Source: a virus. Taken from it: DNA of 64,000 nucleotides. Each line of letters starts with the position of its first letter. Within the stretch, counting starts at the first letter, position 1. Below the pieces are notes generated by a model. It was not told the DNA's origin. It ran no database searches and was given only the letters and a program-made list of their open reading frames with translations. Of this stretch, positions 5,489 through 32,312 are shown piece by piece. The translations under genes were made by a program, and so were the position numbers. The stretch is from positions 1 to 64,000 of IMG/VR virus record IMGVR_UViG_3300046787_000327; one strand, written 5' to 3'.

Positions 5489-5490
5489 TT

Positions 5491-9950: not shown

Positions 9951-10075
9951 TGGCTAAAGTAAAAACAACAGAAGAACAACTTCGTGAAACAGGGATTGCA
10001 AAACTTATTGCATCAACAGGAATTACAGAAGCAGAACTTAGAGCATTGGGGTTGACATCAGATGGCAACAATTAA
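9950..10075 (+). CDS. Small fibre-associated peptide (41 aa, ...GITEAELRALG)
   Basis: Hand-translated; TAATG overlap. Confidence 0.55.
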   Translation: MAKVKTTEEQLRETGIAKLIASTGITEAELRALGLTSDGNN

Positions 10076-12092
10076 TTCAGATGGAAAACTTGCCTATATT
10101 TATAATCAGGCTAACGATACTTGGTATGCAATCTCAGGTGCCGTAAATACTAATGCAGAATATACCTGGACATCTGATCAAGAGTTTGCAGCAGCAGTAA
10201 CATTTGACGCTGTAGCAATAGCAAAGGCTGGAGTAAACAATTTTCAAAACCCTACAGCAAGAGATGCAGCACTAACCTCTCCTACAAATGGAATTGTTTG
10301 TTTTGTTAGACAAAAAAATGACGGCACAGTTATAAATCAAGTTCAGTATTATTACAATGGTGAATGGAGATATATTAATGACTCTACCACTTTTGTTCCA
10401 GTAACAGCAGATTACACAGTTACAAAGGATGATACAGGAAAAACCCTTCTGGTTGATTCCTCGTCAGATATAACAATTACAATTCCATCAAATAGCACTA
10501 CAGCATTTGTTCGTGGACAAAAAATTGAAATTGTTAGAAATGGATCTGGCAAGGTTACAATTGCAAGTGCGCTGGTTAGTGGTACGCCTGTAGTAACAAT
10601 TAATAGCAAGTCATCTAATAAAGATCTTTCTTCACAATTTTCTAGTGCAACAATTACAAAAGTTGACACTAATACCTGGCTACTTACTGGAGATCTAACT
10701 GCTACAGTTACTCCAACTCCAGTTGCGCCTACCCCTACTCCTGTAGCACCAACCCCTGTAGCACCAACCCCTGTTGCACCTACACCAGTGGCTCCTACTC
10801 CTGTAGCACCAACCCCTGTTGCACCAACCCCTGTTGCACCAACCCCTGTTGCACCTACACCAGTTGCACCTACACCAGTTGCACCTACACCAGTTGCGCC
10901 AACGCCTGTAGCACCTACCTATGACATTTATGTAAGTTGCAACGGCTTTAGTGGTAACTACTCAGGTGCCTACGGCACAGCACCAGCAGATAACCCACCT
11001 TACAGTTATTTGAGCGGAACGACAACTCAACTAGGTCTTTCATCTGAACAGATTATTGCAATTGTTGGTATCCCAACCTCTTGTCAGGGAGTTAGCCCAA
11101 CACCTGTAGCACCAACTCCAACTCCTGTTTCACCAACTCCTGTTTCACCAACTCCTGTTTCACCAACGCCTGTTGCACCAACGCCTGTTGCACCAACGCC
11201 TACACCAGTGGCTACGACCTATGACATTTATGTAAGTTGCAACGGCTTTAGTGGTAACTACTCAGGTGCCTACGGTACAGCACCAGCAGATAACCCACCT
11301 TATAGTTACTTAAGTGGAACAACCACCCAGTTGGGTCTTTCATCTGCACAAATTATTGCAATTGTTGGTATCCCAACTTCTTGTCAAGGAGTTAGTCCTA
11401 CACCTGTAGCACCAACACCTACACCAGTTGCTCCTACTCCTGTAGCACCAACACCAGTGGCTCCTACACCAGTGGCTCCTACACCAGTGGCTCCAGTAGC
11501 AGTTGATCCTACACCTGTAGCACCAACACCAGTGGCTCCAGTAGCAGTTGATCCTACACCTGTTGCACCACCGTTCTTCCCGTACTTCATTCCTTGGTTC
11601 GGACCACCATGCGTTGAGGAGAACACTCTAGTGGATACTCCTAATGGACAGATTCCAGTTAAGAATCTTCAGGTAGGTGACGTAATTTGGTCAACACCAA
11701 TTGCTGAACTTGATCCTTCAGAACCAGACTGGCAGAAGTATGCTTGGAACTCTTCAAGCCTAACAACTGGCGAACTTGTTGAGACAACGATTACGGCACT
11801 TGACTCTGTAGAAGAATCAGATATTATCTGCTTCAATGGCAATGAAGACATTAGGCTAACATTTACTCAGCCAATGTTTGTTAAGACATCTGACGGTCAA
11901 TACAAGATTAAGGAAGCCTACTATGTTGAGGTTGGAGATAGCCTAATCGTTATCGACTCAGCAGGAGACACTGTTGAAGTTCCTGTCACAAGCATTGAAC
12001 ACTTCACGGACGAAGTAGTAACTGTTTATCAGTTATCTTGTGAGCCTTATGACTGGTTCTTTGTAAGCGGAATTTTAATTCACAACAAGTAG
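10062..12092 (+). CDS. Fibre-like protein with PTPVA repeats and a C-terminal Hint domain
   Basis: Three PTPVA tracts; duplicated 2-Cys domain; Hint C-V...L..GD...H-N-K-stop. Confidence 0.85.
   Translation: MATINSDGKLAYIYNQANDTWYAISGAVNTNAEYTWTSDQEFAAAVTFDAVAIAKAGVNNFQNPTARDAALTSPTNGIVCFVRQKNDGTVINQVQYYYNGEWRYINDSTTFVPVTADYTVTKDDTGKTLLVDSSSDITITIPSNSTTAFVRGQKIEIVRNGSGKVTIASALVSGTPVVTINSKSSNKDLSSQFSSATITKVDTNTWLLTGDLTATVTPTPVAPTPTPVAPTPVAPTPVAPTPVAPTPVAPTPVAPTPVAPTPVAPTPVAPTPVAPTPVAPTPVAPTYDIYVSCNGFSGNYSGAYGTAPADNPPYSYLSGTTTQLGLSSEQIIAIVGIPTSCQGVSPTPVAPTPTPVSPTPVSPTPVSPTPVAPTPVAPTPTPVATTYDIYVSCNGFSGNYSGAYGTAPADNPPYSYLSGTTTQLGLSSAQIIAIVGIPTSCQGVSPTPVAPTPTPVAPTPVAPTPVAPTPVAPTPVAPVAVDPTPVAPTPVAPVAVDPTPVAPPFFPYFIPWFGPPCVEENTLVDTPNGQIPVKNLQVGDVIWSTPIAELDPSEPDWQKYAWNSSSLTTGELVETTITALDSVEESDIICFNGNEDIRLTFTQPMFVKTSDGQYKIKEAYYVEVGDSLIVIDSAGDTVEVPVTSIEHFTDEVVTVYQLSCEPYDWFFVSGILIHNK
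10711..11570 (+). repeat. 15-nt PTPV(A/S) coding repeats with a 300-nt internal duplication
   Basis: Directly visible; duplicated unit starts at 10917 and 11217. Confidence 0.9.
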
Positions 12093-12097
12093 TCAAA

Positions 12098-12562
12098 GTG
12101 ATCATTAAGGGGTTCTTGACAGAAGAAGAGTGCAACGCATTTCTTTCAGAAGTCGAGGGAAATCCAGATTGGAAGCCTCAGAGTAAAGACACTGGAATAT
12201 ACATTCTTAAGTCAAGGAATCATAAATTGCTAGTTAATATTTATAAGCGAGTTTCCGAACTTTTTGAAAGCACTCTGCATGCTCAGATTATTAGGCTGAT
12301 ACATAAAACAGACAAGGCCTCTATTTGGGCAAGGCATTCAGACAATGCAGGCGGTAGTGAAATAAAGTACGGAGTAGTTATATATCTAAATGATAATTTT
12401 GAAGGCGGAGAACTTTATTACCCAAGCCTAGGTCTTACAATAAAGCCAGAGAAGGGAATGCTGGTTTATCATCCAGGAGATGAAGATCATGAGGTATTAA
12501 AGGTAGTGGCTGGAGAGCGGTACACCCTAACATCATTTATAAGAAGTCAAGGTAAAAAATAA
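12098..12562 (+). CDS. 2OG-Fe(II) oxygenase (prolyl 4-hydroxylase-like)
   Basis: HSD...YLNDNFEGGEL...H...R. Confidence 0.9.
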   Translation: MIIKGFLTEEECNAFLSEVEGNPDWKPQSKDTGIYILKSRNHKLLVNIYKRVSELFESTLHAQIIRLIHKTDKASIWARHSDNAGGSEIKYGVVIYLNDNFEGGELYYPSLGLTIKPEKGMLVYHPGDEDHEVLKVVAGERYTLTSFIRSQGKK

Positions 12563-12585
12563 AGTGTTTGGTGTATAATATAATT

Positions 12586-12831
12586 ATGTCAAATATAGTA
12601 AACAATATCAAGAAAATTGTTGACAACAACAAGGCCTCTGGTGTTAGCCCCATAGATATTTTTAAGCCAGAGACTGAGTGGCTAGATAGTGAGATGTCTG
12701 ATTCTCGTATTGCTATATGCAAGGCATGTCCAGAGTTGATTAAGTTGACAAAACAGTGTCGTAAATGTGGATGTTTTATGGCTATAAAAACTAAAATAGA
12801 AAAAGCATCATGTCCAATGGGGAAGTGGTAG
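12586..12831 (+). CDS. DUF6171-like Cys-rich protein
   Basis: Same motif as 5491-5685; leaderless start. Confidence 0.7.
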   Translation: MSNIVNNIKKIVDNNKASGVSPIDIFKPETEWLDSEMSDSRIAICKACPELIKLTKQCRKCGCFMAIKTKIEKASCPMGKW

Positions 12832-12832
12832 T

Positions 12833-13408
12833 ATGAAAGATCCATATTTATTAAAAAATGTTCTTCCACCAAAAGAGCATAAAGAGTTGCAAGACTTGGC
12901 TTTGCATATATGGTCAACAGACAAGAGCACATTTGATGACGGCTTTGGCAGACACCAATGGGCAATTTGGGATGGTACGCACAAAGAAAATATAGAACCA
13001 CTTAGAAAGTTCCATGAAATGCTTTTGCCTCTTGCAAGAGAAGAATTTGAGTCAGATACTCTAGTACCATCTTGGTGCCTTATAAGTATTTATGAGGGGG
13101 AAAAGGCAAGGCTCTGGAAACATAAAGATGACAATGCCTGTACATATCATATAAATTATACAATTTTTCACAAGACGCCATGGGATTTTTATGTGGAAGG
13201 AATTAAGTTTCAGCCAGAAGCCAACGATGCCGTTCTTTCATATGGGAATGACCAAGAGCATTGGAGAGAAGAGTTCCCCAATCCAGAAACAAACCTAGTT
13301 GCTAACGCTTTCTTTTTTTATACTGAGCCAGACCACTGGTTCTTTACAGAAGGCCCTCAATACTTATACACAAACATTAGAGCAAATAAAGATGAGCAGG
13401 GTATGTAG
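12833..13408 (+). CDS. 2OG-Fe(II) oxygenase (divergent, HKD...HWRE type)
   Basis: HxD and distal H; jelly-roll pattern. Confidence 0.75.
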   Translation: MKDPYLLKNVLPPKEHKELQDLALHIWSTDKSTFDDGFGRHQWAIWDGTHKENIEPLRKFHEMLLPLAREEFESDTLVPSWCLISIYEGEKARLWKHKDDNACTYHINYTIFHKTPWDFYVEGIKFQPEANDAVLSYGNDQEHWREEFPNPETNLVANAFFFYTEPDHWFFTEGPQYLYTNIRANKDEQGM

Positions 13409-13410
13409 TA

Positions 13411-14451
13411 ATGGGGAAAATTTTTTATCAACTCTACCAACCCTGCGGACTATTCAATCAAATGACAAGTTTAGAGGTTGCAGTTGGTTTAGCCAGCAGA
13501 TATAAAAAAGATTTAGTGTTTCATAATATCAGTAATCCATCAGATCGAAACTATAATAATAGGAGCGTTCCCATATACTCTGCAAACTATGCATTTAATG
13601 ATAGAAAAGGGTTAATAGATTCAGATGTATTTCCAAGAATATCAGATCTAGTTGACTGGGAAAACAAGAATTCTCAAAGCCTCATTGATACTAAGATTTC
13701 TTATTTTAAAGGCGAAGATTTTAGAGTAGATAATTTGATGGAGTATTATTCAGTTAAGCCAAAAGATAGTTTAGAAAATGAAGAGTCGTTTTCTGAGGGC
13801 AGACAAAGGATAGACCTAACTAATTATAATAACATCCATCTTAGAAAAACTCTTGGATATTACAGCAGGTTCTTTTTTAACAGAGATGCGAAACTAGATA
13901 AAAGTTTAGCATCTGTAAGATTTAAGCCAGAATATTATGAACTAGCAGAACTAGTTGCAAAATCTATTGGAGATTTTAACGGAGTTCACTTTAGGCTAAC
14001 AGACCATAAGGGTATGTTTGATCCAGATAATAATATTTTAGATTCTGGTATAAACCAAATTGATAGTGGTCTTCCCATTGTTATGTGTACTGATCAACCA
14101 GAAAGTAAACTCATTAAAGAGTCTACTTATAACTATTTATTATTAGATGACTATATTTTAAATAATTTTTATAAAGAATTTAGGCAGTTTAAGTTTAAAG
14201 AAGAAGTTTCTTTTGGAATACTAAATAACTTAGTTATGCATTACAGCAACAATTTTATTGGTAGTCCAGGAAGCACTTTTACTGGGTATATTCATAGAGG
14301 AATAAATCAAAAAAGAGATATCAGTTGGAAAGTTTTTGGAGAAACGGAGCATGTTCAAAACGGTCCATACTCCTGGAATGGCTATGATGTTAAAGATAGC
14401 CTTACAAAGCAATGGTGGAGAGAATGGAAAGAGTCGAGGCTAGCAATATGA
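13411..14451 (+). CDS. O-fucosyltransferase-like glycosyltransferase (GT-B; GT23/65/68-like)
   Basis: GLFNQ, VHFRxxD, FIGSPGSTFT motifs. Confidence 0.75.
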   Translation: MGKIFYQLYQPCGLFNQMTSLEVAVGLASRYKKDLVFHNISNPSDRNYNNRSVPIYSANYAFNDRKGLIDSDVFPRISDLVDWENKNSQSLIDTKISYFKGEDFRVDNLMEYYSVKPKDSLENEESFSEGRQRIDLTNYNNIHLRKTLGYYSRFFFNRDAKLDKSLASVRFKPEYYELAELVAKSIGDFNGVHFRLTDHKGMFDPDNNILDSGINQIDSGLPIVMCTDQPESKLIKESTYNYLLLDDYILNNFYKEFRQFKFKEEVSFGILNNLVMHYSNNFIGSPGSTFTGYIHRGINQKRDISWKVFGETEHVQNGPYSWNGYDVKDSLTKQWWREWKESRLAI

Positions 14452-15488
14452 AAACTGCACTTGTATTAGGGGCTGGAGGCTTTATAGGAAGCCATATGGT
14501 TAAGCGGTTAAAGTCTGAGGGGTACTGGGTAAGAGGAGTTGACTTGAAGCATCCAGAGTTCTCTGACACACAGGCTGATGAGTTTATTGTTCGTGATCTA
14601 TCAGACCAAGACAATATGAATAAGGCCATCTTGTTTAAGGGGTATGCAGGAAACTTTTATAAAGACATCCCATATAAACTATTAGACTCGTTTGACGAGA
14701 TCTATCAGTTTGCAGCAGATATGGGTGGAGCAGGATATATATTTACTGGAGAGAATGATTCTAAAATTATGGAAAACTCTGCATTGATTAATCTTAATTT
14801 GCTTAGAGCACAGTCTAGGTTTAATGATGAGTATGGGGTTAACAAGACAAAGATTTTTTACAGCAGTTCTGCCTGTATGTACCCTGACTATAAGCAGTTG
14901 GATGTTAATAATCCTGGACTCAAGGAGTCTGACGCATACCCTGCTGATCCTGATAGTGAGTATGGCTGGGAAAAGTTGTTTAGTGAAAGATTGTTCCTAG
15001 CCTTTCAAAAAAATAATGGTATCCCCGTAAGAATTGCTAGATACCATAATATTTTTGGACCAGAGGGAACTTGGCAGGGTGGAAAAGAGAAAGCACCAGC
15101 AGCAATATGTAGAAAAGTTATACAGGCAATAGATTCTATGGAAATTTGGGGGGATGGAGAGCAGACACGATCATTTCTATACATAGATGAATGCATAGAG
15201 GCTACAAGAAGGCTCATGTCTTCAGATTTCTCTGGACCTGTAAATATTGGATCTGAGGAAATGGTCACTATCAATCAGTTAGTTGACATTGCCTGTGAAG
15301 TTGAAGGCAAGGACTTAAAAAGGATTCACATACCTGGACCGCTAGGCGTACGTGGCAGAAACTCTAATAATGATTTGGTTAGAAAAGAGTTAGGCTGGGA
15401 CTACTCAATGTCTCTTAAAGAAGGTATAGGAAAAACTTATACCTGGATTAAGGGTCAAATAAATAGCCCCAGCCAACAAATTAGTTAG
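14448..15488 (+). CDS. NAD-dependent epimerase, GDP-mannose 3,5-epimerase-like
   Basis: GAGGFIG, AADMGG, SSAC, YGWEK, EKAPAAxCRK. Confidence 0.85.
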   Translation: MKTALVLGAGGFIGSHMVKRLKSEGYWVRGVDLKHPEFSDTQADEFIVRDLSDQDNMNKAILFKGYAGNFYKDIPYKLLDSFDEIYQFAADMGGAGYIFTGENDSKIMENSALINLNLLRAQSRFNDEYGVNKTKIFYSSSACMYPDYKQLDVNNPGLKESDAYPADPDSEYGWEKLFSERLFLAFQKNNGIPVRIARYHNIFGPEGTWQGGKEKAPAAICRKVIQAIDSMEIWGDGEQTRSFLYIDECIEATRRLMSSDFSGPVNIGSEEMVTINQLVDIACEVEGKDLKRIHIPGPLGVRGRNSNNDLVRKELGWDYSMSLKEGIGKTYTWIKGQINSPSQQIS

Positions 15489-16035
15489 GGAACTGAGCCA
15501 TCCACTGCTTAGTGCGTGGAGTCAATCCATGCCAGGCAGACCAGTCTCTGCCACCATTTGACATATGAAATGCAATCTGTGCATTAACTACTGGATTCAA
15601 AAGATCAGAGTTAGTAACAAGTTCAAACTTGTCACGACGATCTGGTCCTAGCATTCCAATCATGTTAATCTGAAATAAACCCCAAGAGTTATCCCCAGTT
15701 TTAGCATTAGGGTTAATTCTTATGGGCTGTCCGTTAGTTTCTTTCTTTGCAACTCCCCAAGCCTCAACAAGGTTAGATCCTCTGAATCCAACAAGATGAA
15801 GCAGTTCCTTTAGTTCTAAATCAGTGAGAGTTCCTTTGTTCTCAAAACTCTTTAATTTTTCCTCCTTAGAAACCAAAAAAACCTCTTGCGAGGTGGTTTT
15901 CAAGATCTGAGCCTGTTCGGGCTTGGTATTACTTTTAAGCGGAGCAGCATTAGCACTGTTAGAAAATACAGCAAATACTGCGATGATACTGAGTGTGCTA
16001 ATGATCTCTTTGTTTCTTTCGATAAATTTAATCAT
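15481..16035 (-). CDS. Secreted lytic transglycosylase (SLT/Rpf-like lysozyme fold)
   Basis: Signal peptide (ANA); catalytic E in KKET; GLFQIN; W..W; AGGAGG RBS. Confidence 0.8.
   Translation of the reverse strand: MIKFIERNKEIISTLSIIAVFAVFSNSANAAPLKSNTKPEQAQILKTTSQEVFLVSKEEKLKSFENKGTLTDLELKELLHLVGFRGSNLVEAWGVAKKETNGQPIRINPNAKTGDNSWGLFQINMIGMLGPDRRDKFELVTNSDLLNPVVNAQIAFHMSNGGRDWSAWHGLTPRTKQWMAQFPN
15869..15901. terminator. Terminator-like hairpin inside the transglycosylase gene
   Basis: Minus strand ACCUC-GCAA-GAGGU followed by a U-run. Confidence 0.5.
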
Positions 16036-16083
16036 AGTTTCCTCCTTAGAAAACAATAACACCCTGGTAGGTGTCTACTGACA

Positions 16084-16113
16084 AGTATAACATAATTTTC
16101 AACGGTATGTCAA
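16084..16113 (-). promoter_or_regulatory. Promoter TTGACA-N18-TATACT for the transglycosylase
   Basis: Consensus hexamers, extended TG. Confidence 0.7.
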
Positions 16114-16141
16114 GTTATAGGAGTGGTATAATAAATACACT

Positions 16142-16663
16142 ATGGCTACAGGAAATACAGGCGACGGACTCTATAATCTACCCTTCCCCGTTGCAGACGA
16201 CCCAGTAAATGTTCATGGTGACATAGAGTCATTAGTACAAAGATTATTACTCATATTGCCACCCCTAGGTCTTTCTCAGTTTCAACTTGCAGTTATTAAC
16301 AAGAGTGGTTCAGCAATTCCAGCGGGAACACCAGTTTATGCTTCAGGATTTGACAACACCTCATCAAAGACAACCGTATCAAAATCCCTCCCCTCAACTG
16401 AAAACCCAATCTTGGGTTTAGCAAAGACTTCAATTGCAGATGACTCTGAGGGAATTGTAGTCGTTGCAGGAGTTATGGAAAATATTAATACTTCTGGTTT
16501 TGAAAATGGAGACACCCTTTATGTTGGTTCTTCTGGTGGACTCTCTAGTACCCAGTCAGGTGGCGCAGTAGGCGTCGTAGCCCATGCAGCATCTTCAGGG
16601 GTAATTATTGTAGAGGCAAAGGGTAATGGAACATGGGGGGCACTAAAGGCTGGATTAGCCTAA
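16142..16663 (+). CDS. Putative virion protein
   Basis: LPFP..DP.N actinophage minor-tail N-terminus; G..LYV...G cement/fibre-like motif. Confidence 0.55.
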   Translation: MATGNTGDGLYNLPFPVADDPVNVHGDIESLVQRLLLILPPLGLSQFQLAVINKSGSAIPAGTPVYASGFDNTSSKTTVSKSLPSTENPILGLAKTSIADDSEGIVVVAGVMENINTSGFENGDTLYVGSSGGLSSTQSGGAVGVVAHAASSGVIIVEAKGNGTWGALKAGLA

Positions 16664-16681
16664 TAGTGATATAATAACAAC

Positions 16682-17080
16682 ATGGCAACTTTAAGAGGAT
16701 CCGCTTCATCATATGATATTGGCAATAAGCCACCAACAGTTCTTTGGACTGTGGTTCGTGGAGATACCTCTGGGTTTAGAGTTTATGCAACAGATGACGC
16801 AAAGCAACCACTAGTAATTTCTGAGTGGGATATCTCAATGAAGTTTAAGAGACCAAACTCAAACCCTGGAGTTATCTCAGATGATGCAACTCTTATCTTT
16901 ACATTAACTCCAGCACCAGATGACGATGACCAGATTGGTGAGTTCACTGTATGGTTAACATCAGCGGAATCTGTTCAACTTGAAACAGGAGACATCTTTG
17001 ACATTCAGTTGTCTGACCCAACAAGAGTTTGGACTGTTGCTCAGGGCAGCATGAAGATCCTTGAAGATGTAACTGACTAA
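16682..17080 (+). CDS. Virion Ig-like (BppU N-terminal-like) protein
   Basis: VVRGDT...FDIQL; paralog of 7042. Confidence 0.55.
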   Translation: MATLRGSASSYDIGNKPPTVLWTVVRGDTSGFRVYATDDAKQPLVISEWDISMKFKRPNSNPGVISDDATLIFTLTPAPDDDDQIGEFTVWLTSAESVQLETGDIFDIQLSDPTRVWTVAQGSMKILEDVTD

Positions 17081-17301
17081 TGGCAACATCAGTAATTATA
17101 AATGATTTAAACCATCAAACTAAAAAGATTGAAACAATTGATTACCCAATTATTCAGATCGATGACCCACTAAGATTAGTTTCCATTACTGAAATACTTC
17201 CATTTAGAGTAAAGTTTACAGCAATTCAAATCCAAAGCGCATCGTCTATGATTCCTGCAATCCCCTTACAGGTTATTGGTTATAGCAACTATATTCTTTA
17301 A
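17080..17301 (+). CDS. Hypothetical protein
   Basis: ORF; TAATG overlap. Confidence 0.6.
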   Translation: MATSVIINDLNHQTKKIETIDYPIIQIDDPLRLVSITEILPFRVKFTAIQIQSASSMIPAIPLQVIGYSNYIL

Positions 17302-17333
17302 TTATTTAATTAAAACCATGCTATAATAACGAC

Positions 17334-17780
17334 ATGGCTAAAATATCAATTCCAGGAGTTAAGGGTCTGTTCCAATCTGGAGATAGACCATCTCAAGAAA
17401 ACTACGAAGACCTCATTGACACGCTGTCAGCCCAATCAACAGATTTAGGTACAGCAGGTAACAATGAAAATACAATCACGGGTATTGAGAACGTAACTGT
17501 TATTGATAACTTTGATGCTACAGTTTGGCGTATGGTGAAGTACATTATCTCTATCGCTAAAACATCAGCAGGGGACAATAAGTTCTATGCTACAGAAATG
17601 ACAATTCTCGTTGACGGTGCAGATGTATCAGTCAGCGAATATGGAACAATCGACAATGATGGGAATATTGGCACCATTAATGTCTCTCGCACTGGAAATA
17701 CCGTGGCCTTAACAGTCACTCCAGATAATGCGATCAAGCCAGTCACTGTACGTTACGCACGTATGGGACTTAAGGCATAA
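17334..17780 (+). CDS. Putative fibre-associated virion protein
   Basis: F..GD.P..E.Y.DLID N-terminus; KY...TE...EYG domain shared with the 17800 C-terminus. Confidence 0.6.
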   Translation: MAKISIPGVKGLFQSGDRPSQENYEDLIDTLSAQSTDLGTAGNNENTITGIENVTVIDNFDATVWRMVKYIISIAKTSAGDNKFYATEMTILVDGADVSVSEYGTIDNDGNIGTINVSRTGNTVALTVTPDNAIKPVTVRYARMGLKA

Positions 17781-17799
17781 TTAAAAAGGAGATATAAAA

Positions 17800-19857: not shown

Positions 19858-19871
19858 GTAACTAAAAGGTT

Positions 19872-19896
19872 TGGGGGATCCTTTCAAAATCCCCCA
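19872..19896. terminator. GC-rich hairpin after the fibre gene
   Basis: TGGGGGAT...ATCCCCCA. Confidence 0.55.
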
Positions 19897-19925
19897 TAAT
19901 AAAATGTGGTAAAGAGGAGAAATAA

Positions 19926-20378: not shown

Positions 20379-20432
20379 ATTGATGTTATAATAAGATAAG
20401 TAATGGGCAGCACCCATAAGGAGATATAAAAT

Positions 20433-24664: not shown

Positions 24665-25152
24665 TTAAGGTTATAAGTACACCTGCTAACATAGAAGATC
24701 TAGTTAATATTAATGAAAAACTAGACAAAGTTCTCCCACTCAACAAGTTTGAAGATAATCCACATTGGTCAGATGATGCAATTAGCGCAGATCAGATTTA
24801 TAGAATTCAAAAATTTGTAGGTCGTGTTGTTGAGGAGACTGGTGTAATTTTGCAGGGGCAGGTAATAGATATGTTTGGTAATACAAATAAGGTGTTCCCA
24901 TATAACATACAACTTATTAAGATAGATAAGAATACATTTAGCACAGATGTCATAGTCGAAGATCAGATATGTCAAACAATTACCCCACTTAAAAATGAAT
25001 GCAAGACCTATGTTTTGATGAATGATTCAGGGTATGTAGAGGTGGAAGATCTTGTTCATGGAGATTATGCTATAGCAACATACTGGACTGAGTATAGAGA
25101 CATGAGATATAAGAATTGGTTTATTGGCAAGTATATGGTGAGATATGTATAA
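24661..25152 (+). CDS. Hypothetical protein (possibly a degenerate oxygenase fold)
   Basis: ORF in operon; no HxD. Confidence 0.6.
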   Translation: MIKVISTPANIEDLVNINEKLDKVLPLNKFEDNPHWSDDAISADQIYRIQKFVGRVVEETGVILQGQVIDMFGNTNKVFPYNIQLIKIDKNTFSTDVIVEDQICQTITPLKNECKTYVLMNDSGYVEVEDLVHGDYAIATYWTEYRDMRYKNWFIGKYMVRYV

Positions 25153-25924
25153 GAAGGACTTAGATTCTCCAAAGGTAAGGGTTGTAGAGAATTTCATCGA
25201 TGATGCTACATGTGATTATTTAATTAACTATGCACAGCAAGAGGATCTTTGGGATAACTTTAACGACACTATCAAGAGTTATGTTTTTAAAGACAAGGAA
25301 GAGTATATCTCAGCAGGTAAGCAGTGGAACAATAGAAGAATTGACATTAATGAGTTATATCTCCAGGGCATGGATAAGAGAAAGGGTTTCTTTGATGTTG
25401 TGCTACCACTACAGTACAAGATGCACGATGAGGTAGTAGATTTTCTTAAGCCAGACTTTGAACTTCACAGTGAACTGTGGGAGATTGTAAGATGGCAAAA
25501 AGGAAATCTGCAAGAGCCACACGTAGACCATATTGATCCAGACTTTGACCTTTCTTCCGTCAACCTTGACCTAGTTCCAGAAGAGTGTAAGTACTTTTTT
25601 GAAGAAAGAAATATTGAAAAATATAAAAGACTCTTTACAAACAAAGCCTTTACTTCTATTATTTATCTTAATGATGACTACGAGGGAGGCGAATTATATT
25701 TCCCACAGCATGATGGATTTAAGATAAAACCTAAAAAGGGAACGATGCTAATATTTAGCGGTACGATTGATAATATGCACGGAATCAAAGAAGTTACAGA
25801 TGGAACAAGATATACACATGTTACTTTCTGGTCCAACAACATTTCTAAATCAAGCAGAATTGCTTTTGATAAAAAGGTTAATCGTCTTGTTGTTGATGAT
25901 GAGCATAAGCCTCTTATAGATTAA
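25145..25924 (+). CDS. 2OG-Fe(II) oxygenase
   Basis: HVD...YLNDDYEGGEL...H...R. Confidence 0.9.
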   Translation: MYKKDLDSPKVRVVENFIDDATCDYLINYAQQEDLWDNFNDTIKSYVFKDKEEYISAGKQWNNRRIDINELYLQGMDKRKGFFDVVLPLQYKMHDEVVDFLKPDFELHSELWEIVRWQKGNLQEPHVDHIDPDFDLSSVNLDLVPEECKYFFEERNIEKYKRLFTNKAFTSIIYLNDDYEGGELYFPQHDGFKIKPKKGTMLIFSGTIDNMHGIKEVTDGTRYTHVTFWSNNISKSSRIAFDKKVNRLVVDDEHKPLID

Positions 25925-25958
25925 TCATTTATGATATACTTGACTAAAAGGGGAAAGT

Positions 25959-26726
25959 ATGAATAACATTATTTCATTTATGTCTAATAGGCCTTGGCTC
26001 AAAAAGGATAGCAACTCTGTCCCAACCCCAATGATTAAAACAATGCCAGACTGGTACAGAGAAGCCGATAGATTTGCAAAGATGCCAAATGGTGAATTTT
26101 ACAAAGCACCAAAAGGTATATGTCCTTATCCAAAAGAAGGAACTACAGATGACTATGGCCTAATTCCCACATGGAAAGCATGTCCCTCAGTTTTTGATAT
26201 CATGGGGACAGGTTACTCACTAAACCTACCATGCGATATAGAGTTTATACAAAAAGATGATGGCACACTGGTGGTAAATATAGAAGATAAGCAGTATAAA
26301 GATTTTTGTACTCCAAGACCACCAATGGCACAATTTCAACACCCAATGGGTTACAACGAGCATCACTTTGCTTGGTTTATAGATTGGGCAATGAAAACTC
26401 CAGAAGGATATAGCAGTTTGATTACTCAACCGTTCAACAGGTTTGAATTACCATTCTTAAACACCTCTGGTATAATTGACACAGACAAGGTTCATCTAAT
26501 GGGATCCCTACCATTCTTTATTGTGAAGGGGTGGTCAGGAACTCTAAAGGCTGGAACAACTTTTGCACAGGTCTTGCCTTTTAAGAGAGAAGACTGGTCA
26601 TCAGAAGTTTCTATAGAAAACCCAATGAACATGTACACAAAGAACAAAGAGAATTCTGAAATTTATAGAGTCCCAGATGGAGGGGTTTATAAAAATACAG
26701 TATGGAGCAGAAGGAAGTATGAATAA
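25959..26726 (+). CDS. DUF6065-related hypothetical protein
   Basis: P.W...KACP...GY...GIIDTD...LKAGT...Q.LPFKR pattern similar to 28127. Confidence 0.5.
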   Translation: MNNIISFMSNRPWLKKDSNSVPTPMIKTMPDWYREADRFAKMPNGEFYKAPKGICPYPKEGTTDDYGLIPTWKACPSVFDIMGTGYSLNLPCDIEFIQKDDGTLVVNIEDKQYKDFCTPRPPMAQFQHPMGYNEHHFAWFIDWAMKTPEGYSSLITQPFNRFELPFLNTSGIIDTDKVHLMGSLPFFIVKGWSGTLKAGTTFAQVLPFKREDWSSEVSIENPMNMYTKNKENSEIYRVPDGGVYKNTVWSRRKYE

Positions 26727-27454
26727 TGACAGAACATGATGAAAACTTAAATCACTGGTTTATCAAAGATAGATCAGAGACAGCATCAAACAGGCTAGCA
26801 CCACGACAGGTAGGCAAAGATATTGTGGTTGAAAATTTAGCCCTAGGTCTAAATGTATACCGTAATACTTTTACCTTAGATGATGCCAACAGGTATATAG
26901 ACACCCTTGAGTCAAATCTTTCTTCTGGTAAAAAGTATTCCTGGTCAGAGGCACAAGTAACCAATTCAACTACACCTATTAAAAAGGCAAGAGACTGTGT
27001 AGACTTTAGGTTTAAGCAAGAAAACCTAGGTCCAAGAGACGAAGCAAATGCCGAACTCCTTGACTTGCATGAAGAGATTTACCAAAAATTAAAGTTTTGC
27101 ATAGATGACTATGCACAATATTGGGGCATTAATGTTGTTTACTATGAAGCATTTAATTTTGTAAAGTATGAGGGCAAGGGGACACACTTTAACATCCATG
27201 CAGACCATGGCCCAGCATACAACTCTACTGTATCAGCAGTTATTTATATCAATGACGATTATGAAGGCGGGGACTTAAAATTCCCAAGACTAGATAATAT
27301 TGTGTATAAGCCAAGAGTTGGCGATATCGCTGTATTCCCATCAAACTATATCTATGAGCATGCATCTCTGCCCATGGAGTCAGGAACTAAGTATTGTGTT
27401 GTAGTAATGACAGATATTAATGAATTGAGTCATCAACAAGTTAGGGGCATCTAA
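26726..27454 (+). CDS. 2OG-Fe(II) oxygenase
   Basis: HAD...YINDDYEGG...H...K. Confidence 0.9.
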   Translation: MTEHDENLNHWFIKDRSETASNRLAPRQVGKDIVVENLALGLNVYRNTFTLDDANRYIDTLESNLSSGKKYSWSEAQVTNSTTPIKKARDCVDFRFKQENLGPRDEANAELLDLHEEIYQKLKFCIDDYAQYWGINVVYYEAFNFVKYEGKGTHFNIHADHGPAYNSTVSAVIYINDDYEGGDLKFPRLDNIVYKPRVGDIAVFPSNYIYEHASLPMESGTKYCVVVMTDINELSHQQVRGI

Positions 27455-28125
27455 TGCAAACATGGACAGATAAGGTAGATTTTGGTAGCGGAATTATTTG
27501 CTACAAAGGGGTTGTAAAAAAGGAATTTGATGTAATCAATAGACTTGAAAAGAATCTTGGATCGGTTGCTGACTATAACTCATTATCACCAGAAGGCAAT
27601 CGTTATCATTGGCACCCAGCATATGTAGGGTATCAGCAATTAATGCCAGACTACAGAGACTGCGTTGACTTTAAGTTTAAGAAGACTGATATCGAGTTAG
27701 ATAGGAGCACTGTTTCTTTAGAGTTGCAGGATTTATGGCAAGACCTATATGATGCCAAGTTGCCAGCGGTAGAAGATTATTCTAGAATGTATAATATTAA
27801 TAATCTTCAGTATTGGGAAGCAATGAATTTTATTCGTTATGGAGAAGGTCAGCACTTCAAAGAGCACCATGACCATGGATTCTCCTATAACTGTACAGTT
27901 TCACTAGTTGCATATCCAAATGATGATTATGAAGGTGGCGAACTCTTCTTTAGACTTCAGGGACTGACAGTAAAGCCTGAAGCGGGAGACCTATTCGTGT
28001 TTCCTTCTAACTATATGTACCCTCATCAGGCTATGCCAGTTACTTCTGGGGTTAAGTATTCAATTGTTACCATGCTAGATTATAATAAGAAGTTTCATAC
28101 ACCAGAAATGTATATGGCTGACTAG
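27454..28125 (+). CDS. 2OG-Fe(II) oxygenase (paralog of 23461)
   Basis: HHD...H...KYSIVTMLDY. Confidence 0.9.
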   Translation: MQTWTDKVDFGSGIICYKGVVKKEFDVINRLEKNLGSVADYNSLSPEGNRYHWHPAYVGYQQLMPDYRDCVDFKFKKTDIELDRSTVSLELQDLWQDLYDAKLPAVEDYSRMYNINNLQYWEAMNFIRYGEGQHFKEHHDHGFSYNCTVSLVAYPNDDYEGGELFFRLQGLTVKPEAGDLFVFPSNYMYPHQAMPVTSGVKYSIVTMLDYNKKFHTPEMYMAD

Positions 28126-28126
28126 T

Positions 28127-28846
28127 ATGATAAACATTAGAGTTGAAAAAACACCAGGCTCAACATTTAAGATTGAGCCAATGTCAATTAAAAGAGATTG
28201 GATGGATTTAACTCCTGAAAATCATGCATACAGATGTTTTCCAGTAACACAGTCAAATGTAATTGGCTGGAGCCTTTCTTCTACTAGCGATATTGTTTTC
28301 AGGTGGGACGGGGTAAATGATTCAAGTCCAAACCATGTTGAAATCTTTAGTCCACAAGAAGGTTCTTATAGTGGTAGAGGGCAATCATCTGTAAGCCTAG
28401 ATACTGGCCTAATTTTTAAAACAGAAAGTGATACCAGTATTTGGACTATAAACCCAGTAAATTATTTTAGCGATGATTTCGAGACAATCTCTAGTTTAAT
28501 TAGTACATCGTTTTATGGTAATCCTTTGCCACTCGCTATTAAAGCAAAAAGATCACAAGAACTTGTAACAATCAAAGCAGGAACTCCTCTTGCAACAATC
28601 ATTCCAATCTCACTAACAAATCTGAATAATAGTACTATTGAAATAGTAAGGTATCAGGACTTTGATGGGAAAAGACAAGAAGATAGCAGGGCCTATGGAG
28701 ACGCAGCACAAGCAGTAAATGCATCAGGACAGTGGACAGACTGGTATAGAAATGCTGTGAATGAAAAAAATGAGTCACTCGGCTCTCATGAAGTTAAGGC
28801 TCTTAAACTTGAAGTAAACGATACAACGAATGGTGATATAATATAA
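28127..28846 (+). CDS. DUF6065-like protein
   Basis: KRDWMD...AYRCFP...N..GW signature. Confidence 0.6.
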   Translation: MINIRVEKTPGSTFKIEPMSIKRDWMDLTPENHAYRCFPVTQSNVIGWSLSSTSDIVFRWDGVNDSSPNHVEIFSPQEGSYSGRGQSSVSLDTGLIFKTESDTSIWTINPVNYFSDDFETISSLISTSFYGNPLPLAIKAKRSQELVTIKAGTPLATIIPISLTNLNNSTIEIVRYQDFDGKRQEDSRAYGDAAQAVNASGQWTDWYRNAVNEKNESLGSHEVKALKLEVNDTTNGDII

Positions 28847-28848
28847 AT

Positions 28849-29529
28849 ATGGAACAAAATAAAGACTCATATAAAATAGTAAAGAGAACTCCTTCAATTA
28901 CTCCTTCAGGCTGGTTTGGGGATAGTAAGGATATGATCGTTGAATTAGAAAACTTTATGACTGAAGAAGAGATAGAGTTCTTAGAGAAGGCTGCAAAGTC
29001 GTTGACTATTTGGGATGTAACTGAAAGCCATGTAAATGAGAATGGAACTGTTACATATGATTCAAACTATTGGAAGGATAGAGTTGCAACAACTCCAACT
29101 TTAAATAAGAATGATCCGTCCATTGCTCCCGTTATAGAGGGTCTATTCAAGAGATTAAAGCCAATTGTAGAAGAGTTTTATAGTGTAGAGGTTGTGCCAA
29201 CAGGAACAACTATTGTTAAGTGGCTTCCAGGCCAGTTCCAACAGCCACATGCAGATAAGGAATTACATGAGGGTCCAGATGCAGGAACGCCAAACGATTT
29301 TCCAAACTATGACCTATCTAGTTTATTTTATCTAAATGATGATTATGAGGGCGGAGAATTATACTTCCCACTACAAGGGGTACAGTTTAAGCCTAAAAAG
29401 GGTGCAGCATATTTCTTTCCAGGGGACAGAAACTTTGTCCATGGTGTTACAGAGATCAAGAGCGGTCTAAGATTTACCTGCCCATTCTTTTGGGAGATCA
29501 CCAAGCATACAGGAGATAGACAGCCATGA
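28849..29529 (+). CDS. 2OG-Fe(II) oxygenase
   Basis: HAD...YLNDDYEGGEL...HGV...R. Confidence 0.9.
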   Translation: MEQNKDSYKIVKRTPSITPSGWFGDSKDMIVELENFMTEEEIEFLEKAAKSLTIWDVTESHVNENGTVTYDSNYWKDRVATTPTLNKNDPSIAPVIEGLFKRLKPIVEEFYSVEVVPTGTTIVKWLPGQFQQPHADKELHEGPDAGTPNDFPNYDLSSLFYLNDDYEGGELYFPLQGVQFKPKKGAAYFFPGDRNFVHGVTEIKSGLRFTCPFFWEITKHTGDRQP

Positions 29530-30272
29530 ATCTAAACAATAAAAAAAGAATTACAAAAGATATCGTTATATATGAAAACTTCTTGACTGAGGAAGAGTCA
29601 GCAAAGATTATCAAGGTTTTAGATGCACAGGCAGATGGCGGTCATATGACTTGGATGCCCATCTCATTCTATGAGTCATACTCTTCTGTTTTACCTCAAG
29701 ACGGAGATAAAGAGATTGAGGATTTTGGACTACCACCTACAATATTTTCAGATATTGAGAAGACAATCCCTGTAGCCGTTGCTTCTGTTCATGACCTAGA
29801 TCCAGCAACTATCCATAAGATTGGCTACCACACTCAAAAGTGGGAGCCTGGAGCATTTGCAAGACTCCACTCTGACAATACGGATGATAAGGGTAACTCT
29901 GGTGCTTTCACAAGAAGTCGTTATGCAGCGTTTGTATACCTTAACGAAGACTTTGAAGGAGGAATGCTAAGGTTCCCAACTAATGATATTGAGATCAAGC
30001 CTCAGACTGGACTGCTTGCTGTTTTTGACGGGGGATTTGAAAACATGCACGAGGTAAGTCTTATTACTAAGGGTATTAGATACACTATCGGATCCTTCTG
30101 GGATGATAGAGCGGAGTCTGACTACCCACAAGAACTCAGAGATGCTTGGGCTGAAGAAATGAAACAGACTAGAGCACAGCAAGAGATTGAAAGAGCAGAG
30201 TGGCAAAGCCTCCTTAAGGAAGGTTTTAAGTTAGATGATATGGGAAACAAGTATAAGGTAGAGGAACTTTAA
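29526..30272 (+). CDS. 2OG-Fe(II) oxygenase
   Basis: HSD...YLNEDFEGG...HEV...R. Confidence 0.9.
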   Translation: MNLNNKKRITKDIVIYENFLTEEESAKIIKVLDAQADGGHMTWMPISFYESYSSVLPQDGDKEIEDFGLPPTIFSDIEKTIPVAVASVHDLDPATIHKIGYHTQKWEPGAFARLHSDNTDDKGNSGAFTRSRYAAFVYLNEDFEGGMLRFPTNDIEIKPQTGLLAVFDGGFENMHEVSLITKGIRYTIGSFWDDRAESDYPQELRDAWAEEMKQTRAQQEIERAEWQSLLKEGFKLDDMGNKYKVEEL

Positions 30273-30273
30273 T

Positions 30274-30936
30274 ATGGATGTTTTCCTAAAGAAAGAACTT
30301 GAAGATGCTGGATTTAGTACTCAAGTGCTTTATGACCATGTTTTAGTTGTTGAAAACTTTTTGTCACAAGAAGAAGTCGAAATTGTAAATAGTATAATTA
30401 GCGAAACTAGCAATGAAGAGTGGTCAAAGGAATACAAGAAAAGTCTTGCAAATTTCTGTATGGAAAAGTTTGGTAGAGATGATGTAGAAAATCTTGTTGC
30501 TGAGGGCAAGTATGAAATTACTCAGGGGTGGGATGATAAAAATCTAGACATTAGCACAAATCCTCTAAGCAGAAAACTACAGGATAGACTTGGAGAGTTG
30601 ATTGCCATAGCAGACAACAGTTTGCAACTAGGTGGATTTGCAACAATGCAGAGAATGCAACCAGGAGTGGAATTAAAGTTGCATACCGATGAGCACACAG
30701 ATCCATCCATTAGGTACGCTGCAATTCTTTATATCAATGACGACTATGCAGACGGAACGCTATTCTTTAAGAATATAGAGGGTTCGGACTTAAAGCCAAA
30801 ACCAGGTACGTTACTTCTTTTCCCAGGAAACGCAGAGTACGAACATGGAGTTAGACATGTAGGGGAAGGTCCAATTAGATATGTTATAGTTGGATTTTTA
30901 AGAATTAAAGATTTCTATGAAAAGAATAAGTACTAA
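30274..30936 (+). CDS. 2OG-Fe(II) oxygenase
   Basis: HTD...YINDDY...HGV...R. Confidence 0.9.
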   Translation: MDVFLKKELEDAGFSTQVLYDHVLVVENFLSQEEVEIVNSIISETSNEEWSKEYKKSLANFCMEKFGRDDVENLVAEGKYEITQGWDDKNLDISTNPLSRKLQDRLGELIAIADNSLQLGGFATMQRMQPGVELKLHTDEHTDPSIRYAAILYINDDYADGTLFFKNIEGSDLKPKPGTLLLFPGNAEYEHGVRHVGEGPIRYVIVGFLRIKDFYEKNKY

Positions 30937-30945
30937 GGGGGAACT

Positions 30946-31650
30946 ATGGAAAAGCAGATTTTAGAAGAGAAGGTCTACTACTACGAAACTGGAGTGAAGG
31001 ACTTTGAGAAACTCATGGAGACTATCGATGAGTTAGATAGCCTTGAGTCAGAGACTGGAGTATCATCCTGGCATGACTGGACAGCATCAAACGATAAAGA
31101 CTTTATCTATGGCTCTACAAAGACATTTGACATTAATCATATTAATGGACTAGAAGAGCCTTACAAGTCAAAGATGGCATTTGTATATAAAACCATTATG
31201 GACTCCTTCTATGATGTGTCTAAGGACTATGCTCTTGCATTAGGTGATACAGATGAGCCAAGACTATTTCCAACCTTTAATATCAAGAAGTACAAAGAAG
31301 GAACAAGTATGGGGGCTCACTTTGATCAACTTGATGGAGATGAAACTCTTAGATATTCACTAGTCATGTATCTAAATGACGATTTTGATGGTGGAGAGAT
31401 CTCTTTCTCAATGTCTGACTACTCAGGTGTTTTAAAGAAGCAAACGCCTCATCCAGATTATGACCATCCAGACAATGCCAAGTTAATGGATTTTTCAATT
31501 AAGCCAAAGGCTGGAAGCATCATTATCTTCCCATCTTCAGCACCATATCATCACACTGCCCACCTTGTTAAAAGCAAGTTTAAGTATATGGTCCCAGGAC
31601 ACTGGATTCATAACAACATGGACTTTTATCGCTCTTCTGGCAGTATGTAG
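30946..31650 (+). CDS. 2OG-Fe(II) oxygenase
   Basis: HFD...YLNDDFDGGE...H...K. Confidence 0.9.
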   Translation: MEKQILEEKVYYYETGVKDFEKLMETIDELDSLESETGVSSWHDWTASNDKDFIYGSTKTFDINHINGLEEPYKSKMAFVYKTIMDSFYDVSKDYALALGDTDEPRLFPTFNIKKYKEGTSMGAHFDQLDGDETLRYSLVMYLNDDFDGGEISFSMSDYSGVLKKQTPHPDYDHPDNAKLMDFSIKPKAGSIIIFPSSAPYHHTAHLVKSKFKYMVPGHWIHNNMDFYRSSGSM

Positions 31651-32312
31651 TGAAAACTGCAATAGTAACTGGTGCCAGCAAGGGCGTAGGGTATGCAACA
31701 GTTAAGTTGCTATCTGAGTCTGGGTATCGTGTTATTGCAGTCTCTAGGGACCTATCAAAGGTCTCAGAACTAGTCTCTGATAATGTTGAGGTCTATCAAA
31801 TGGATATAACCGTAGCAGAAGAACTCAAAAAGTTTCATCAAAAGTATCAGGGTATAACTTTAGATCTTTTAGTTAATAATGCAGGTGGTGGCTCAAGCCC
31901 AACCAATATTGCAAGAGAGACAATGGATAACTTTAGGCACTCGTACGATATTAATGTTTCAGGCCCAATGTACCTATCTCAACTATTTATACCAGAGATG
32001 CAGAAGTCAAACTCTGCAACTATTATTTTTATTAGTTCTCTTGGTGGTAAGTATGCTTATCGTGGTGGAGGAAATTATACAAATGCCAAGCGTGGCCAGA
32101 TGGCTCTTGTTGACACTATGAGGCTAGAGTTTCCAGAGTATGGAATTAAAGTAACAGAGATATGTCCAGGTACGATAGATACACAAAAAGAAAAGAAACC
32201 TGCTGCTCTTACAGCAGAAGATTTAGCGGAATCTATTCGTTGGGTAGCAGAAATGCCAAGCCATGTCAATATAAACCACATAGAATTAAATCATATTCTT
32301 AGTGGTAAATGA
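31650..32312 (+). CDS. Short-chain dehydrogenase/reductase (YdfG-like)
   Basis: TGASKGVG, NNAG, YxxxK. Confidence 0.85.
   Translation: MKTAIVTGASKGVGYATVKLLSESGYRVIAVSRDLSKVSELVSDNVEVYQMDITVAEELKKFHQKYQGITLDLLVNNAGGGSSPTNIARETMDNFRHSYDINVSGPMYLSQLFIPEMQKSNSATIIFISSLGGKYAYRGGGNYTNAKRGQMALVDTMRLEFPEYGIKVTEICPGTIDTQKEKKPAALTAEDLAESIRWVAEMPSHVNINHIELNHILSGK

Follow-up and report, generated by a model that had tools for sequence, protein, structure and literature searches.

The first 64,000 nucleotides of the IMG/VR virus record IMGVR_UViG_3300046787_000327 (the window in what follows), which are the start of a single 112,951-bp contig, code for two fibre-region proteins, HintA and HintB, that end in the same aromatic/Pro junction and C-terminal Hint domain. 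Each gene is directly followed by a set of enzyme genes (cassettes 1 and 2) that includes 2-oxoglutarate (2OG)-Fe(II) oxygenases of the prolyl 4-hydroxylase (P4H) type. The best-supported reading, to which we give somewhat better than even chances, is that these enzymes are dedicated to the Pro-rich tracts of the fibre-region proteins. As far as their families and neighbours indicate, the arrays probably serve to modify proteins of the phage and are not directed at host metabolism. Domain families, catalytic residues and a gene order that is conserved in many lineages are direct observations, and the arrangement is far from chance across the relatives.

The two Hint-containing tract proteins are encoded as follows.

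10062-12092 (+), HintA, a 676-aa fibre-type protein (Pfam Hint_2 at 5e-4, under the cut-off; alignment of Hint domains).
22170-23438 (+), HintB, 422 aa (FN3 by Pfam at 3e-6; Hint_2 under the Pfam cut-off).

The N-terminal domain of HintA resembles the C-terminus of the Mtd-type fibre encoded at 20433 (38% over 105 aa). Its middle part (about 10704-11567) carries PTPVA repeats with a 15-nt period and two Cys modules, followed by the aromatic/Pro junction tract PPFFPYFIPWFGPP (11568-11609) and the Hint domain, which extends from Cys517 to Lys676 (11610-12089). HintB has a conserved N-terminus, two FN3-type domains and a 64-residue PPFF/PYF tract, here written (PPFF)n (22764-22955); its Hint domain (Cys263 to Lys422, 22956-23435) follows a junction identical to that of HintA. 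The two proteins have only their last ~175 residues in common, namely the aromatic/Pro stretch, IPWFGPP/C (the slash marks the junction) and a 160-residue Hint domain ending in VHNK-stop. The Hint domains share 84% protein identity over 167 aa and 77% DNA identity over 300 nt. The original prediction, made from this DNA alone, was that two genes end in the same FPYFIPWFGPP-Hint and are each followed by tailoring enzymes, and both protein sequences confirm it.

The oxygenases of the two cassettes are listed below.

12098-12562 (+), P4H-type 2OG-Fe(II) oxygenase, partner of the glycosyltransferase slot in cassette 1 (PF13640 at 2.5e-10; B. anthracis P4H at 2.3e-8; HxD...H).
12833-13408 (+), divergent 2OG-oxygenase-like protein (PHROG 2954 at 1e-11; in the alignment, H-K-D and a distal His fall on the triad positions).
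23461-24664 (+), two P4H-type oxygenases, 23461-24129 and 24089-24664, with a 41-nt overlap (PF13640 at 5.5e-13 and 3.2e-19).
25145-25924 (+), P4H-type oxygenase (PF13640 at 4.4e-10).
26726-28125 (+), two P4H-type oxygenases, 26726-27454 and 27454-28125 (PF13640 at 3.6e-11 and 1.2e-14; P4H structure 3itq at 2e-5).
28849-31650 (+), four P4H-type oxygenases, 28849-29529, 29526-30272, 30274-30936 and 30946-31650 (PF13640 at 5e-9, 1e-8, 1e-10 and 2e-10).

The count of two plus nine oxygenases downstream of the Hint genes, as originally given, stands. The gathering score of PF13640 is passed by ten window genes (those starting at 12098, 23461, 24089, 25145, 26726, 27454, 28849, 29526, 30274 and 30946; 36-70 bits against a cut-off of 27). 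The eleventh, at 12833, is divergent and stays under all Pfam thresholds; the cyanophage members of PHROG 2954 are labelled 'ferrochelatase' or 2OG oxygenase in their records. The H, D, H iron triad is invariant in all eleven proteins. The ten PF13640 paralogues also have an Arg or Lys in a G-x-(R/K)-(Y/F) strand, and this basic 2OG-binding residue is not evident in the 12833 protein in the alignment of the eleven sequences. When a profile of the eleven paralogues was compared with solved structures, it matched the B. anthracis P4H (1.8e-14), human P3H1 (7e-14), PHD2 (1.5e-7), 5c5t (3.9e-6; listed as 'Prolyl 4-hydroxylase', which we take to be the PBCV-1 enzyme) and LH3 (5e-6), while Tet-like and AlkB proteins reached merely ~2e-3. 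These matches suggest that the oxygenases are of a protein-modifying type, with peptidyl prolyl hydroxylases as their nearest solved relatives. The paralogues of the window are mutually only 23-50% identical, and related contigs contain a separate orthologue of every one of them (47-91% identity, mostly ~70-90% in the closest relatives). Low mutual identity combined with individual orthologues indicates that the oxygenases are old, individually maintained genes.

About 200 related phage contigs were examined overall, and two samples were drawn from opposite ends of the cassette. The Hint-side sample consists of 144 IMG/VR loci from four Hint subfamilies, 112 of them with a detectable Hint gene. 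Around these 112 genes, enzyme genes fill 206 of 443 positions at +1 to +3 and none of the 332 positions at -1 to -3. When Hint clusters at 70% identity are counted, an enzyme lies within the next three genes in 26 of 36, and within the preceding three in none of the 29 that have upstream genes. Enzymes are downstream of the Hint gene in every one of the many gene orders seen (among them H-OOxODOODOOOOO-S, H-ODxOOODDOOOO, H-O-Z-GT, H-Z(GT fusion), H-D, H..D.D...OOS and H-O-o-D-Z-GT), and the order within the cassette is unchanged in different surroundings, be it before a lysozyme-like gene, the gene for a ribonucleotide reductase (RNR) or a portal gene.

The enzyme-side sample consists of 80 loci retrieved by an oxygenase alignment, and 50 arrays among these have upstream DNA. 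A (PPFF)n aromatic/Pro-tract protein is encoded at most three genes upstream in 44 of the 50 arrays and four to eight genes upstream in the other six. Arrays independent of Pro-tract genes in relatives would have spoken against the original prediction, so this result favours it. A tract protein was counted upstream in 43 of 49 cases, against a chance expectation of 17%, and downstream in 3 of 23. Only 8 of the 44 upstream tract proteins have a Hint domain; the other 36 lack it and have an FN3-(PPFF)n architecture that ends in a ~25-residue Cys-rich tail or in another short tail. Near-isogenic genomes with and without the Hint have the same downstream genes. The constant partner of the oxygenase arrays is, to judge from these loci, the tract protein and not the Hint, because 36 of 44 arrays follow Hint-less tract proteins and Hint-less genomes keep the downstream genes. 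To this extent the original prediction, which had made the Hint the defining partner, does not hold. Strict coupling between Hint and enzymes had been suggested by the dereplicated FN3-type genes (enzymes downstream in 32 of 33 with a Hint and in 3 of 7 without); it was rejected in view of the near-isogenic Hint-less genomes and the oxygenase-anchored loci.

Two further observations concern the tract proteins. The Cys-rich tails of FN3-(PPFF)n proteins (loci L150-L229, e.g. L153:645-1583 and L157:609-1613) contain at least five and up to about ten Cys in 18 tract proteins, as in ...SGCSGCIRSYCWQACPSCCGSCGC-stop, and may represent an alternative C-terminal cap. In Synechococcus phage S-SCSM1 (L148), a 'short tail fiber protein' (1084-2349) has a long Arg/Pro/Phe low-complexity tract, and three 2OG oxygenase genes (4113-6907, one of them double-length) are located four genes after the tail-fibre genes. 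From this phage, the tract-plus-oxygenase pattern may extend to cyanophages.

Cassette 1 contains, in addition to its two oxygenases, three genes that point to glycosylation.

12568-12831 (+), DUF6171, a small Cys-rich protein (CxxC...CxxCxC...C; PF19668 at 4e-8).
13411-14451 (+), GT-B fucosyltransferase-like glycosyltransferase, nearest to protein O-fucosyltransferases (POFUT) by AlphaFold2 model, Foldseek and motifs.
14412-15488 (+), NDP-sugar epimerase/dehydratase (PF01370 at 9e-35; PF16363 at 5e-25; NCBIfam NF047922 at 1e-20).

The AlphaFold2 model of the 13411 protein, built with 18 homologues, has a pLDDT of 80. Its top Foldseek matches are POFUT2 (4ap6, 4.7e-6), POFUT1 (3zy3), FUT8 and NodZ (probability 1.0, TM-score ~0.42). 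The sequence contains HFRLTDH and GSPGSTFTGY, corresponding to HxRxxD and S-T-F, which we take to be the defining motifs of the POFUT family. The match to PF10250 is under the cut-off (E 0.021; 14.8 bits against 31.5), and precomputed tables assign this family to three homologues with 54-57% identity. On the strength of the modelled fold, we predict that the protein is a POFUT-like glycosyltransferase. The best named match of the 14412 protein is GDP-L-fucose synthase, below the cut-off of that model.

Relatives have, in the glycosyltransferase slot beside the P4H-like gene, PF11397, the family of the Skp1 hydroxyproline/Thr polypeptide GlcNAc-transferase; PF11397 is present in L013, L016, L028, L115 and L135. 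None of the window proteins scanned against Pfam matches PF11397. In L013 (PF11397 at 5e-37), the HintA-type Hint domain is 92% identical to that of the window. In L028 (3588-4772), DUF6171 and PF11397 (2e-41) are fused, and elsewhere DUF6171 directly precedes the PF11397 gene; the fusion ties the small Cys-rich protein of the window to the glycosyltransferase step. Cassette slots of other relatives contain a GT2-type glycosyltransferase, an epimerase, a radical SAM/SPASM protein (in one relative only), a sulfotransferase (PF03567), an Asp/Asn beta-hydroxylase (PF05118) or a methyltransferase (e.g. L012:7151-8155; L126:10509-12433). Enzyme families and synteny thus fit the assembly line of hydroxylation and glycosylation that the original prediction proposed, with the reservation that the glycosylation genes are confined to cassette 1.

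Four further genes belong to the array of cassette 2.

24652-25152 (+), a 166-aa protein with no family, whose position in the array is conserved in relatives (its orthologues are the x in the gene strings above).
25959-26726 (+), dUTPase-fold protein, a distant DUF6065 relative (AlphaFold2 model with pLDDT 93; VIA-align).
28127-28846 (+), DUF6065 protein, same family HMM as 25959 (PF19541 at 2.3e-26).
31650-32312 (+), short-chain dehydrogenase/reductase (SDR) closing the array, as in relatives (PF00106 at 3e-41; S in the gene strings).

The 24652 gene was missing from the gene list first drawn up for cassette 2; its product has no Pfam family, and an Atlas search gave sub-threshold leads only. 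The other non-oxygenase proteins originally named for the two cassettes were matched by Pfam or fold (the Cys-rich protein, the O-fucosyltransferase-like enzyme, the SDR and the DUF6065-like pair, of which 28127 is a DUF6065 protein and 25959 a weak relative). For the DUF6065-like proteins, the dUTPase-like modelled fold led to rejection of a cupin or 2OG fold. The AlphaFold2 model of 25959 (44 homologues) aligns with dUTPase 3h6x over 120 residues (VIA-align Z 9.4), and all ranks through 13 are dUTPases or dCTP deaminases. The 25959 subfamily keeps G(I/V)ID(T/S)D (GIIDTD, motif III-like) and GTPxxQ (motif IV-like); both are confined to this subfamily and missing in 28127. No motif V-like stretch stood out in the 25959 and 28127 families, in which no search was aimed at motif V. 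In the lineage with FG-type tracts, three genes for proteins of ~215-236 aa that follow HintB-type genes had no match in a Pfam scan.

A profile built from nine Hint domains was searched against 1.84 billion representatives and matched 399 clusters at 50% identity. Of the 150 that were listed, nearly all show a match that extends to the C-terminal end of the protein, and in 26 sequences that were retrieved the domain is preceded by a low-complexity tract of Phe/Tyr/Trp and Pro (PPFF, PPGFF, FGFTPF, PPVI). Position 1 is Cys or Ser at all junctions, and His-Asn is common at the C-terminus, among the matches listed. Cys1 does not vary in the alignment of Hint domains, and relatives of 57-91% identity retain it without exception, together with the junction and His-Asn. 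Over the wider family, the C-terminal ends vary (HNK-stop, HN plus 14 residues, HD/Ser plus a 35-45-residue tail, FD forms). By phmmer, the window Hint matches the intein 6rpq (0.003) and the bacterial intein-like (BIL) domain 2lwy (0.0098), aligned through the terminal HN. In block B, the TxxH motif (TPTHP in 6rpq, TFDHP in 2lwy) is replaced by TFTQP in the window and close relatives; the Thr is thus retained and the His is an invariant Gln, while other Hint subfamilies keep the His. HintA and HintB also differ from canonical inteins in that the +1 residue is Lys followed by stop and no endonuclease domain is present. Only this Lys and the stop follow the Hint domain, so that an adaptor (sterol-recognition) region of the Hog type is absent from both proteins.

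The two Hint domains within one genome are 46-98% identical (with one outlier at 25%), compared with ~28-30% between lineages. In a tree covering 28 loci with two Hint genes, the A/B pairs of one genome are strongly supported sister groups, while the remainder of the two proteins is unrelated. By this pattern, the paired Hint domains undergo concerted evolution. The Hint-less homologues terminate just past the tract, and loss of the Hint leaves roughly the product expected from cleavage at FGPP/C. The Hint is therefore most likely a facultative, self-removing C-terminal cap and not the organiser of the system, as far as can be judged from these protein ends. The original prediction had offered release or ligation of the product as roles of the Hint, and the Hint-less ends appear to favour release.

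Some relatives of the Hint domain have other endings or other neighbours. One subfamily of HintB type (L047, L052, L063, L070:10001-11308 and others) ends in His-Asp/Ser and a further 35-45 residues that form a conserved tail (...LYQQWRDSQ...). These forms appear to have a true mini-intein layout and could splice the tract to the tail. In Phage NCTB (L034:6969-8489) and Erwinia phage pEa_SNUABM_30 (L035:5014-6456), tail/virion proteins have collagen-like Gly-X-Y repeats and a C-terminal Hint (GGGG/C...IHN plus 7 residues), and three 'intein domain' proteins are encoded one after the other in Phage NCTB. In these jumbo phages, NCTB and the Erwinia Alexandravirus, no oxygenase is annotated within the flanking 6-8 kb of the Hint genes.

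In the mechanism that we propose, presence in the virion, the identity of the substrates, chemistry, timing and Hint cleavage are all predicted. The fibre-region pair would be built of variable N-terminal fibre or FN3 domains, a low-complexity aromatic/Pro tract and the C-terminal Hint. The genes directly downstream would provide a late-expressed enzyme set that modifies the tract proteins after translation. Up to eleven oxygenases of the prolyl-hydroxylase type would hydroxylate the tract, chiefly the Pro residues of the PP(F/Y)F and PTPVA repeats. In cassette 1, the POFUT-like glycosyltransferase would then add a sugar, with its substrate supplied by the NDP-sugar epimerase and with the DUF6171 zinc-ribbon-like protein as a partner. 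Cys1 of the Hint would form a thioester at FGPP/C, and its resolution would leave a mature protein that ends in the tract. The PTPVA repeats may be further substrates, as may the following protein.

7530-8267 (+), collagen-like fibre protein with ~15 Gly-X-Y triplets and X-Pro-Gly sites (context; possible extra substrate).

What stands of the modification system as originally described is the protein-modifying character of the enzyme families and, by comparative genomics only, their genomic tie to tract proteins; the part assigned to the Hint does not stand as written. The term 'RiPP-like' (for ribosomally synthesized and post-translationally modified peptides) is an analogy in logic only, because the candidate substrates are multidomain proteins of 420-680 aa (422 and 676 here) and not short precursor peptides. 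It is tempting to speculate further, improbable as we consider it, that up to eleven hydroxylases together with glycosyl- and other transferases turn the (PPFF)n tail into a heavily modified polymer resembling extensin or mussel adhesive. As a follower that removes itself, the Hint would present the tract to the enzymes or fix the tail covalently by its thioester, and many '2OG-Fe(II) oxygenase AMGs' (auxiliary metabolic genes) of aquatic phages would be virion-maturing enzymes.

A number of observations weigh against enzymes dedicated to the tracts. Many cyanophages, pelagiphages and Methylophilales phages without a detected Hint protein carry the oxygenase family, and the cyanophage literature reads it as metabolic (nitrogen-stress) or DNA-repair genes (PMC3037559). 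A twelfth oxygenase of the family (84887-85465, minus strand) lies outside the window in the replication-side half of the contig, away from the tract and Hint genes, and copies are also found among the DNA-repair genes of cyanophage S-MbCM7. The dUTPase-fold proteins are kept in every array, have in part a dUTPase-like motif III, would suggest nucleotide chemistry and are not accounted for by our model; the window array abuts the RNR gene, and four of its paralogues have sub-threshold Tet_JBP matches. Ten different hydroxylases appear to exceed the need of one repetitive tract, some FG-type tract proteins (L090, L103) have no enzyme genes after them, and the virion location of HintA and HintB is deduced from gene neighbourhood and domain types. 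The alternative is that the enzymes are auxiliary genes acting on host molecules, nucleotides, DNA or small metabolites, and that the end of the fibre module is merely a tolerated, inherited insertion site. We regard this as unlikely. Adjacency to the RNR gene is not constant, given that the cassette is also found before a lysozyme-like or a portal gene, and the link to the tract gene persists in all three settings and is strictly directional. The co-located enzymes are of protein-modifying types (POFUT-like, PF11397, Asp/Asn hydroxylase, radical SAM-SPASM), and the profile matches prolyl hydroxylases about 10 orders of magnitude better than Tet or AlkB proteins. The oxygenase copy number follows tract composition, with 6-10 oxygenases for PP-rich tracts and 0-4 for single-Pro FGFTPF (FG-like) tracts; the correlation with tract Pro content (Spearman rho 0.64, 40 dereplicated loci) is, however, confounded by phylogeny, and these and the other counts are not independent, since a single broad group of related phages supplies most of the loci.

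Other explanations concern the Hint. Its thioester might ligate the C-terminus of the tract, in Hedgehog fashion, to a virion protein, a cell-envelope component or a small nucleophile supplied by the neighbouring enzymes, or the Hint might be a docking handle for the enzymes before it leaves. Concerted evolution of the paired domains fits a shared partner, forms that have lost the C-terminal His-Asn still retain the nucleophile at position 1, and the dereplicated FN3-type counts given above are in line with such a role. We nevertheless give it little credence, as most arrays follow Hint-less tract proteins, near-isogenic genomes without the Hint retain the same downstream genes, and no adaptor follows the Hint; concerted evolution is explicable by plain gene conversion between two 77%-identical repeats. 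A little less probable still, in our estimate, is that the Hint is an inactive knob or the decaying remnant of a mini-intein, that the tract proteins serve, unmodified, as flexible linkers or adhesins, and that the association has no functional meaning. Replacement of the block B His by an invariant Gln makes the cleavage competence of the window Hint uncertain, which also weighs against the mechanism proposed here. The block F Asp is likewise a Gln, the Hint_2 score is under the Pfam threshold, and the C-terminal motifs vary widely among relatives. A decaying remnant is hard to reconcile with the invariance of Cys1, junction and His-Asn in the 57-91%-identical relatives and with the number of Hint clusters and their C-terminal position, while the individual orthologue of each oxygenase paralogue argues for selection on each.

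Among known systems, two eukaryotic viruses are closest to modification of the tracts by dedicated enzymes. The P4H of PBCV-1 acts on (PAPK)n-type repeats, and the mimivirus lysyl hydroxylase/glycosyltransferase L230 acts on viral collagen. In both cases, as predicted here, a virus encodes both P4H- or LH-type 2OG oxygenases and repetitive Pro-rich structural proteins of its own, and hydroxylation is followed by glycosylation; PBCV-1 P4H and LH3/L230-type structures are among the PDB matches. In contrast to these, the virus considered here is a bacteriophage with up to 11 diverged paralogues per array, its tract is aromatic/Pro ((PPFF)n) and not PAPK or Gly-X-Y, the putative substrate gene is fixed directly upstream, the Hint cap is optional, and the array includes dUTPase-fold proteins and an SDR. 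A fibre protein whose C-terminal domain is expected to remove itself once its task is done also recalls the self-cleaving intramolecular chaperone domains (Peptidase_S74) of phage tailspikes and fibres. The two types of domain share neither fold nor chemistry (Hint thioester in one, Ser-Lys dyad in the other), and Pfam scans of HintA and HintB gave no match to Peptidase_S74. Mycobacteriophages encode glycosyltransferases that glycosylate virion capsid and tail-tube subunits. Actinophage-type glycosyltransferase genes beside structural genes, with low-complexity C-terminal regions of virion proteins as putative targets, are common ground; that system is not known to involve oxygenases or Hint domains, and the chemistry here is predicted. 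Virion glycosylation of mycobacteriophages is mentioned in PMC11256854.

The Skp1 pathway of Dictyostelium and Toxoplasma involves prolyl hydroxylation by the P4H PhyA and glycosylation by the GlcNAc-transferase Gnt1 (PMC3515798, PMC11570480). It pairs a cytoplasmic PF13640-type P4H with PF11397, the two families whose genes are adjacent after HintA-type genes in phage relatives. It differs in that the window has a POFUT-like glycosyltransferase instead of PF11397, the candidate substrate is a repetitive tract and not a single Pro, and the genes form a viral cluster to which DUF6171 is linked. BIL and other C-terminal autoprocessing Hint domains (Amitai 2003, Dassa 2004, reviewed in PMC7765530) resemble the window Hint in being Hint domains without a homing endonuclease in variable surface-type proteins, with Cys1, a C-terminal His-Asn and no +1 nucleophile. 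By this analogy, N- or C-terminal autocleavage rather than splicing is expected. The window Hint is set apart by its position at the extreme C-terminus with a single Lys and stop, by the Gln in place of the TxxH His, by the aromatic/Pro tract that always precedes it, and by two concertedly evolving copies per genome.

The arrangement was not found described in the literature searched on phage hydroxyproline, phage Hint fibres and actinophage oxygenase arrays. If the proposal is correct, a phage system would here, for the first time as far as the literature searched shows, combine protein hydroxylation with glycosylation. Removable capping of fibre proteins would also be a new function for Hint domains, in a family that comprises at least 399 clusters at 50% identity, and the system would provide a source of orthogonal peptide hydroxylases and of a compact self-cleaving module. 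Few 'auxiliary metabolic genes' are reported from aquatic phages as often as 2OG-Fe(II) oxygenases, and a fixed upstream tract partner together with protein-type glycosyltransferases makes the question of their substrate testable on defined peptides.

By its gene content, the contig is that of a 113-kb siphovirus-like phage with actinophage affinities. The head and tail genes of the window are of siphovirus type (portal, protease, major head protein, minor tail proteins), and an open reading frame of 3048 aa is what we take, from size and position, to be the tape measure. The portal is ~47% identical to those of large Streptomyces phages, and the class II RNR is 62% identical to that of the freshwater Actinomycetia phage DSL-LC01, in which a comparable oxygenase array is not present; on these two matches, identity as a T4-like cyanophage was rejected. 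The same affinities, together with PASTA-type domains in relatives, suggest an actinobacterial host. A megablast search with the array gave no close DNA relative among isolated phages. No tRNA genes were found, and scans for promoters and terminators gave sites no more numerous than in shuffled sequence, which limits the operon claim to the close spacing of genes on a single strand. Between the two cassettes lie fibre, lysozyme-like and cement-protein genes that occupy about 6 kb (15481-22139). Two of the fibre genes there (17800-19857 and 20433-22139) have internal repeats of 72-87 nt, and the latter codes for an Mtd_N domain and for His-containing repeats (...T.N.HGIADT...). The gene for the class II (B12-dependent) RNR (32412-34451) is located between the enzyme array and the head module and is directly followed by a gene for a conserved 1237-aa protein with no assigned function (34475-38188).

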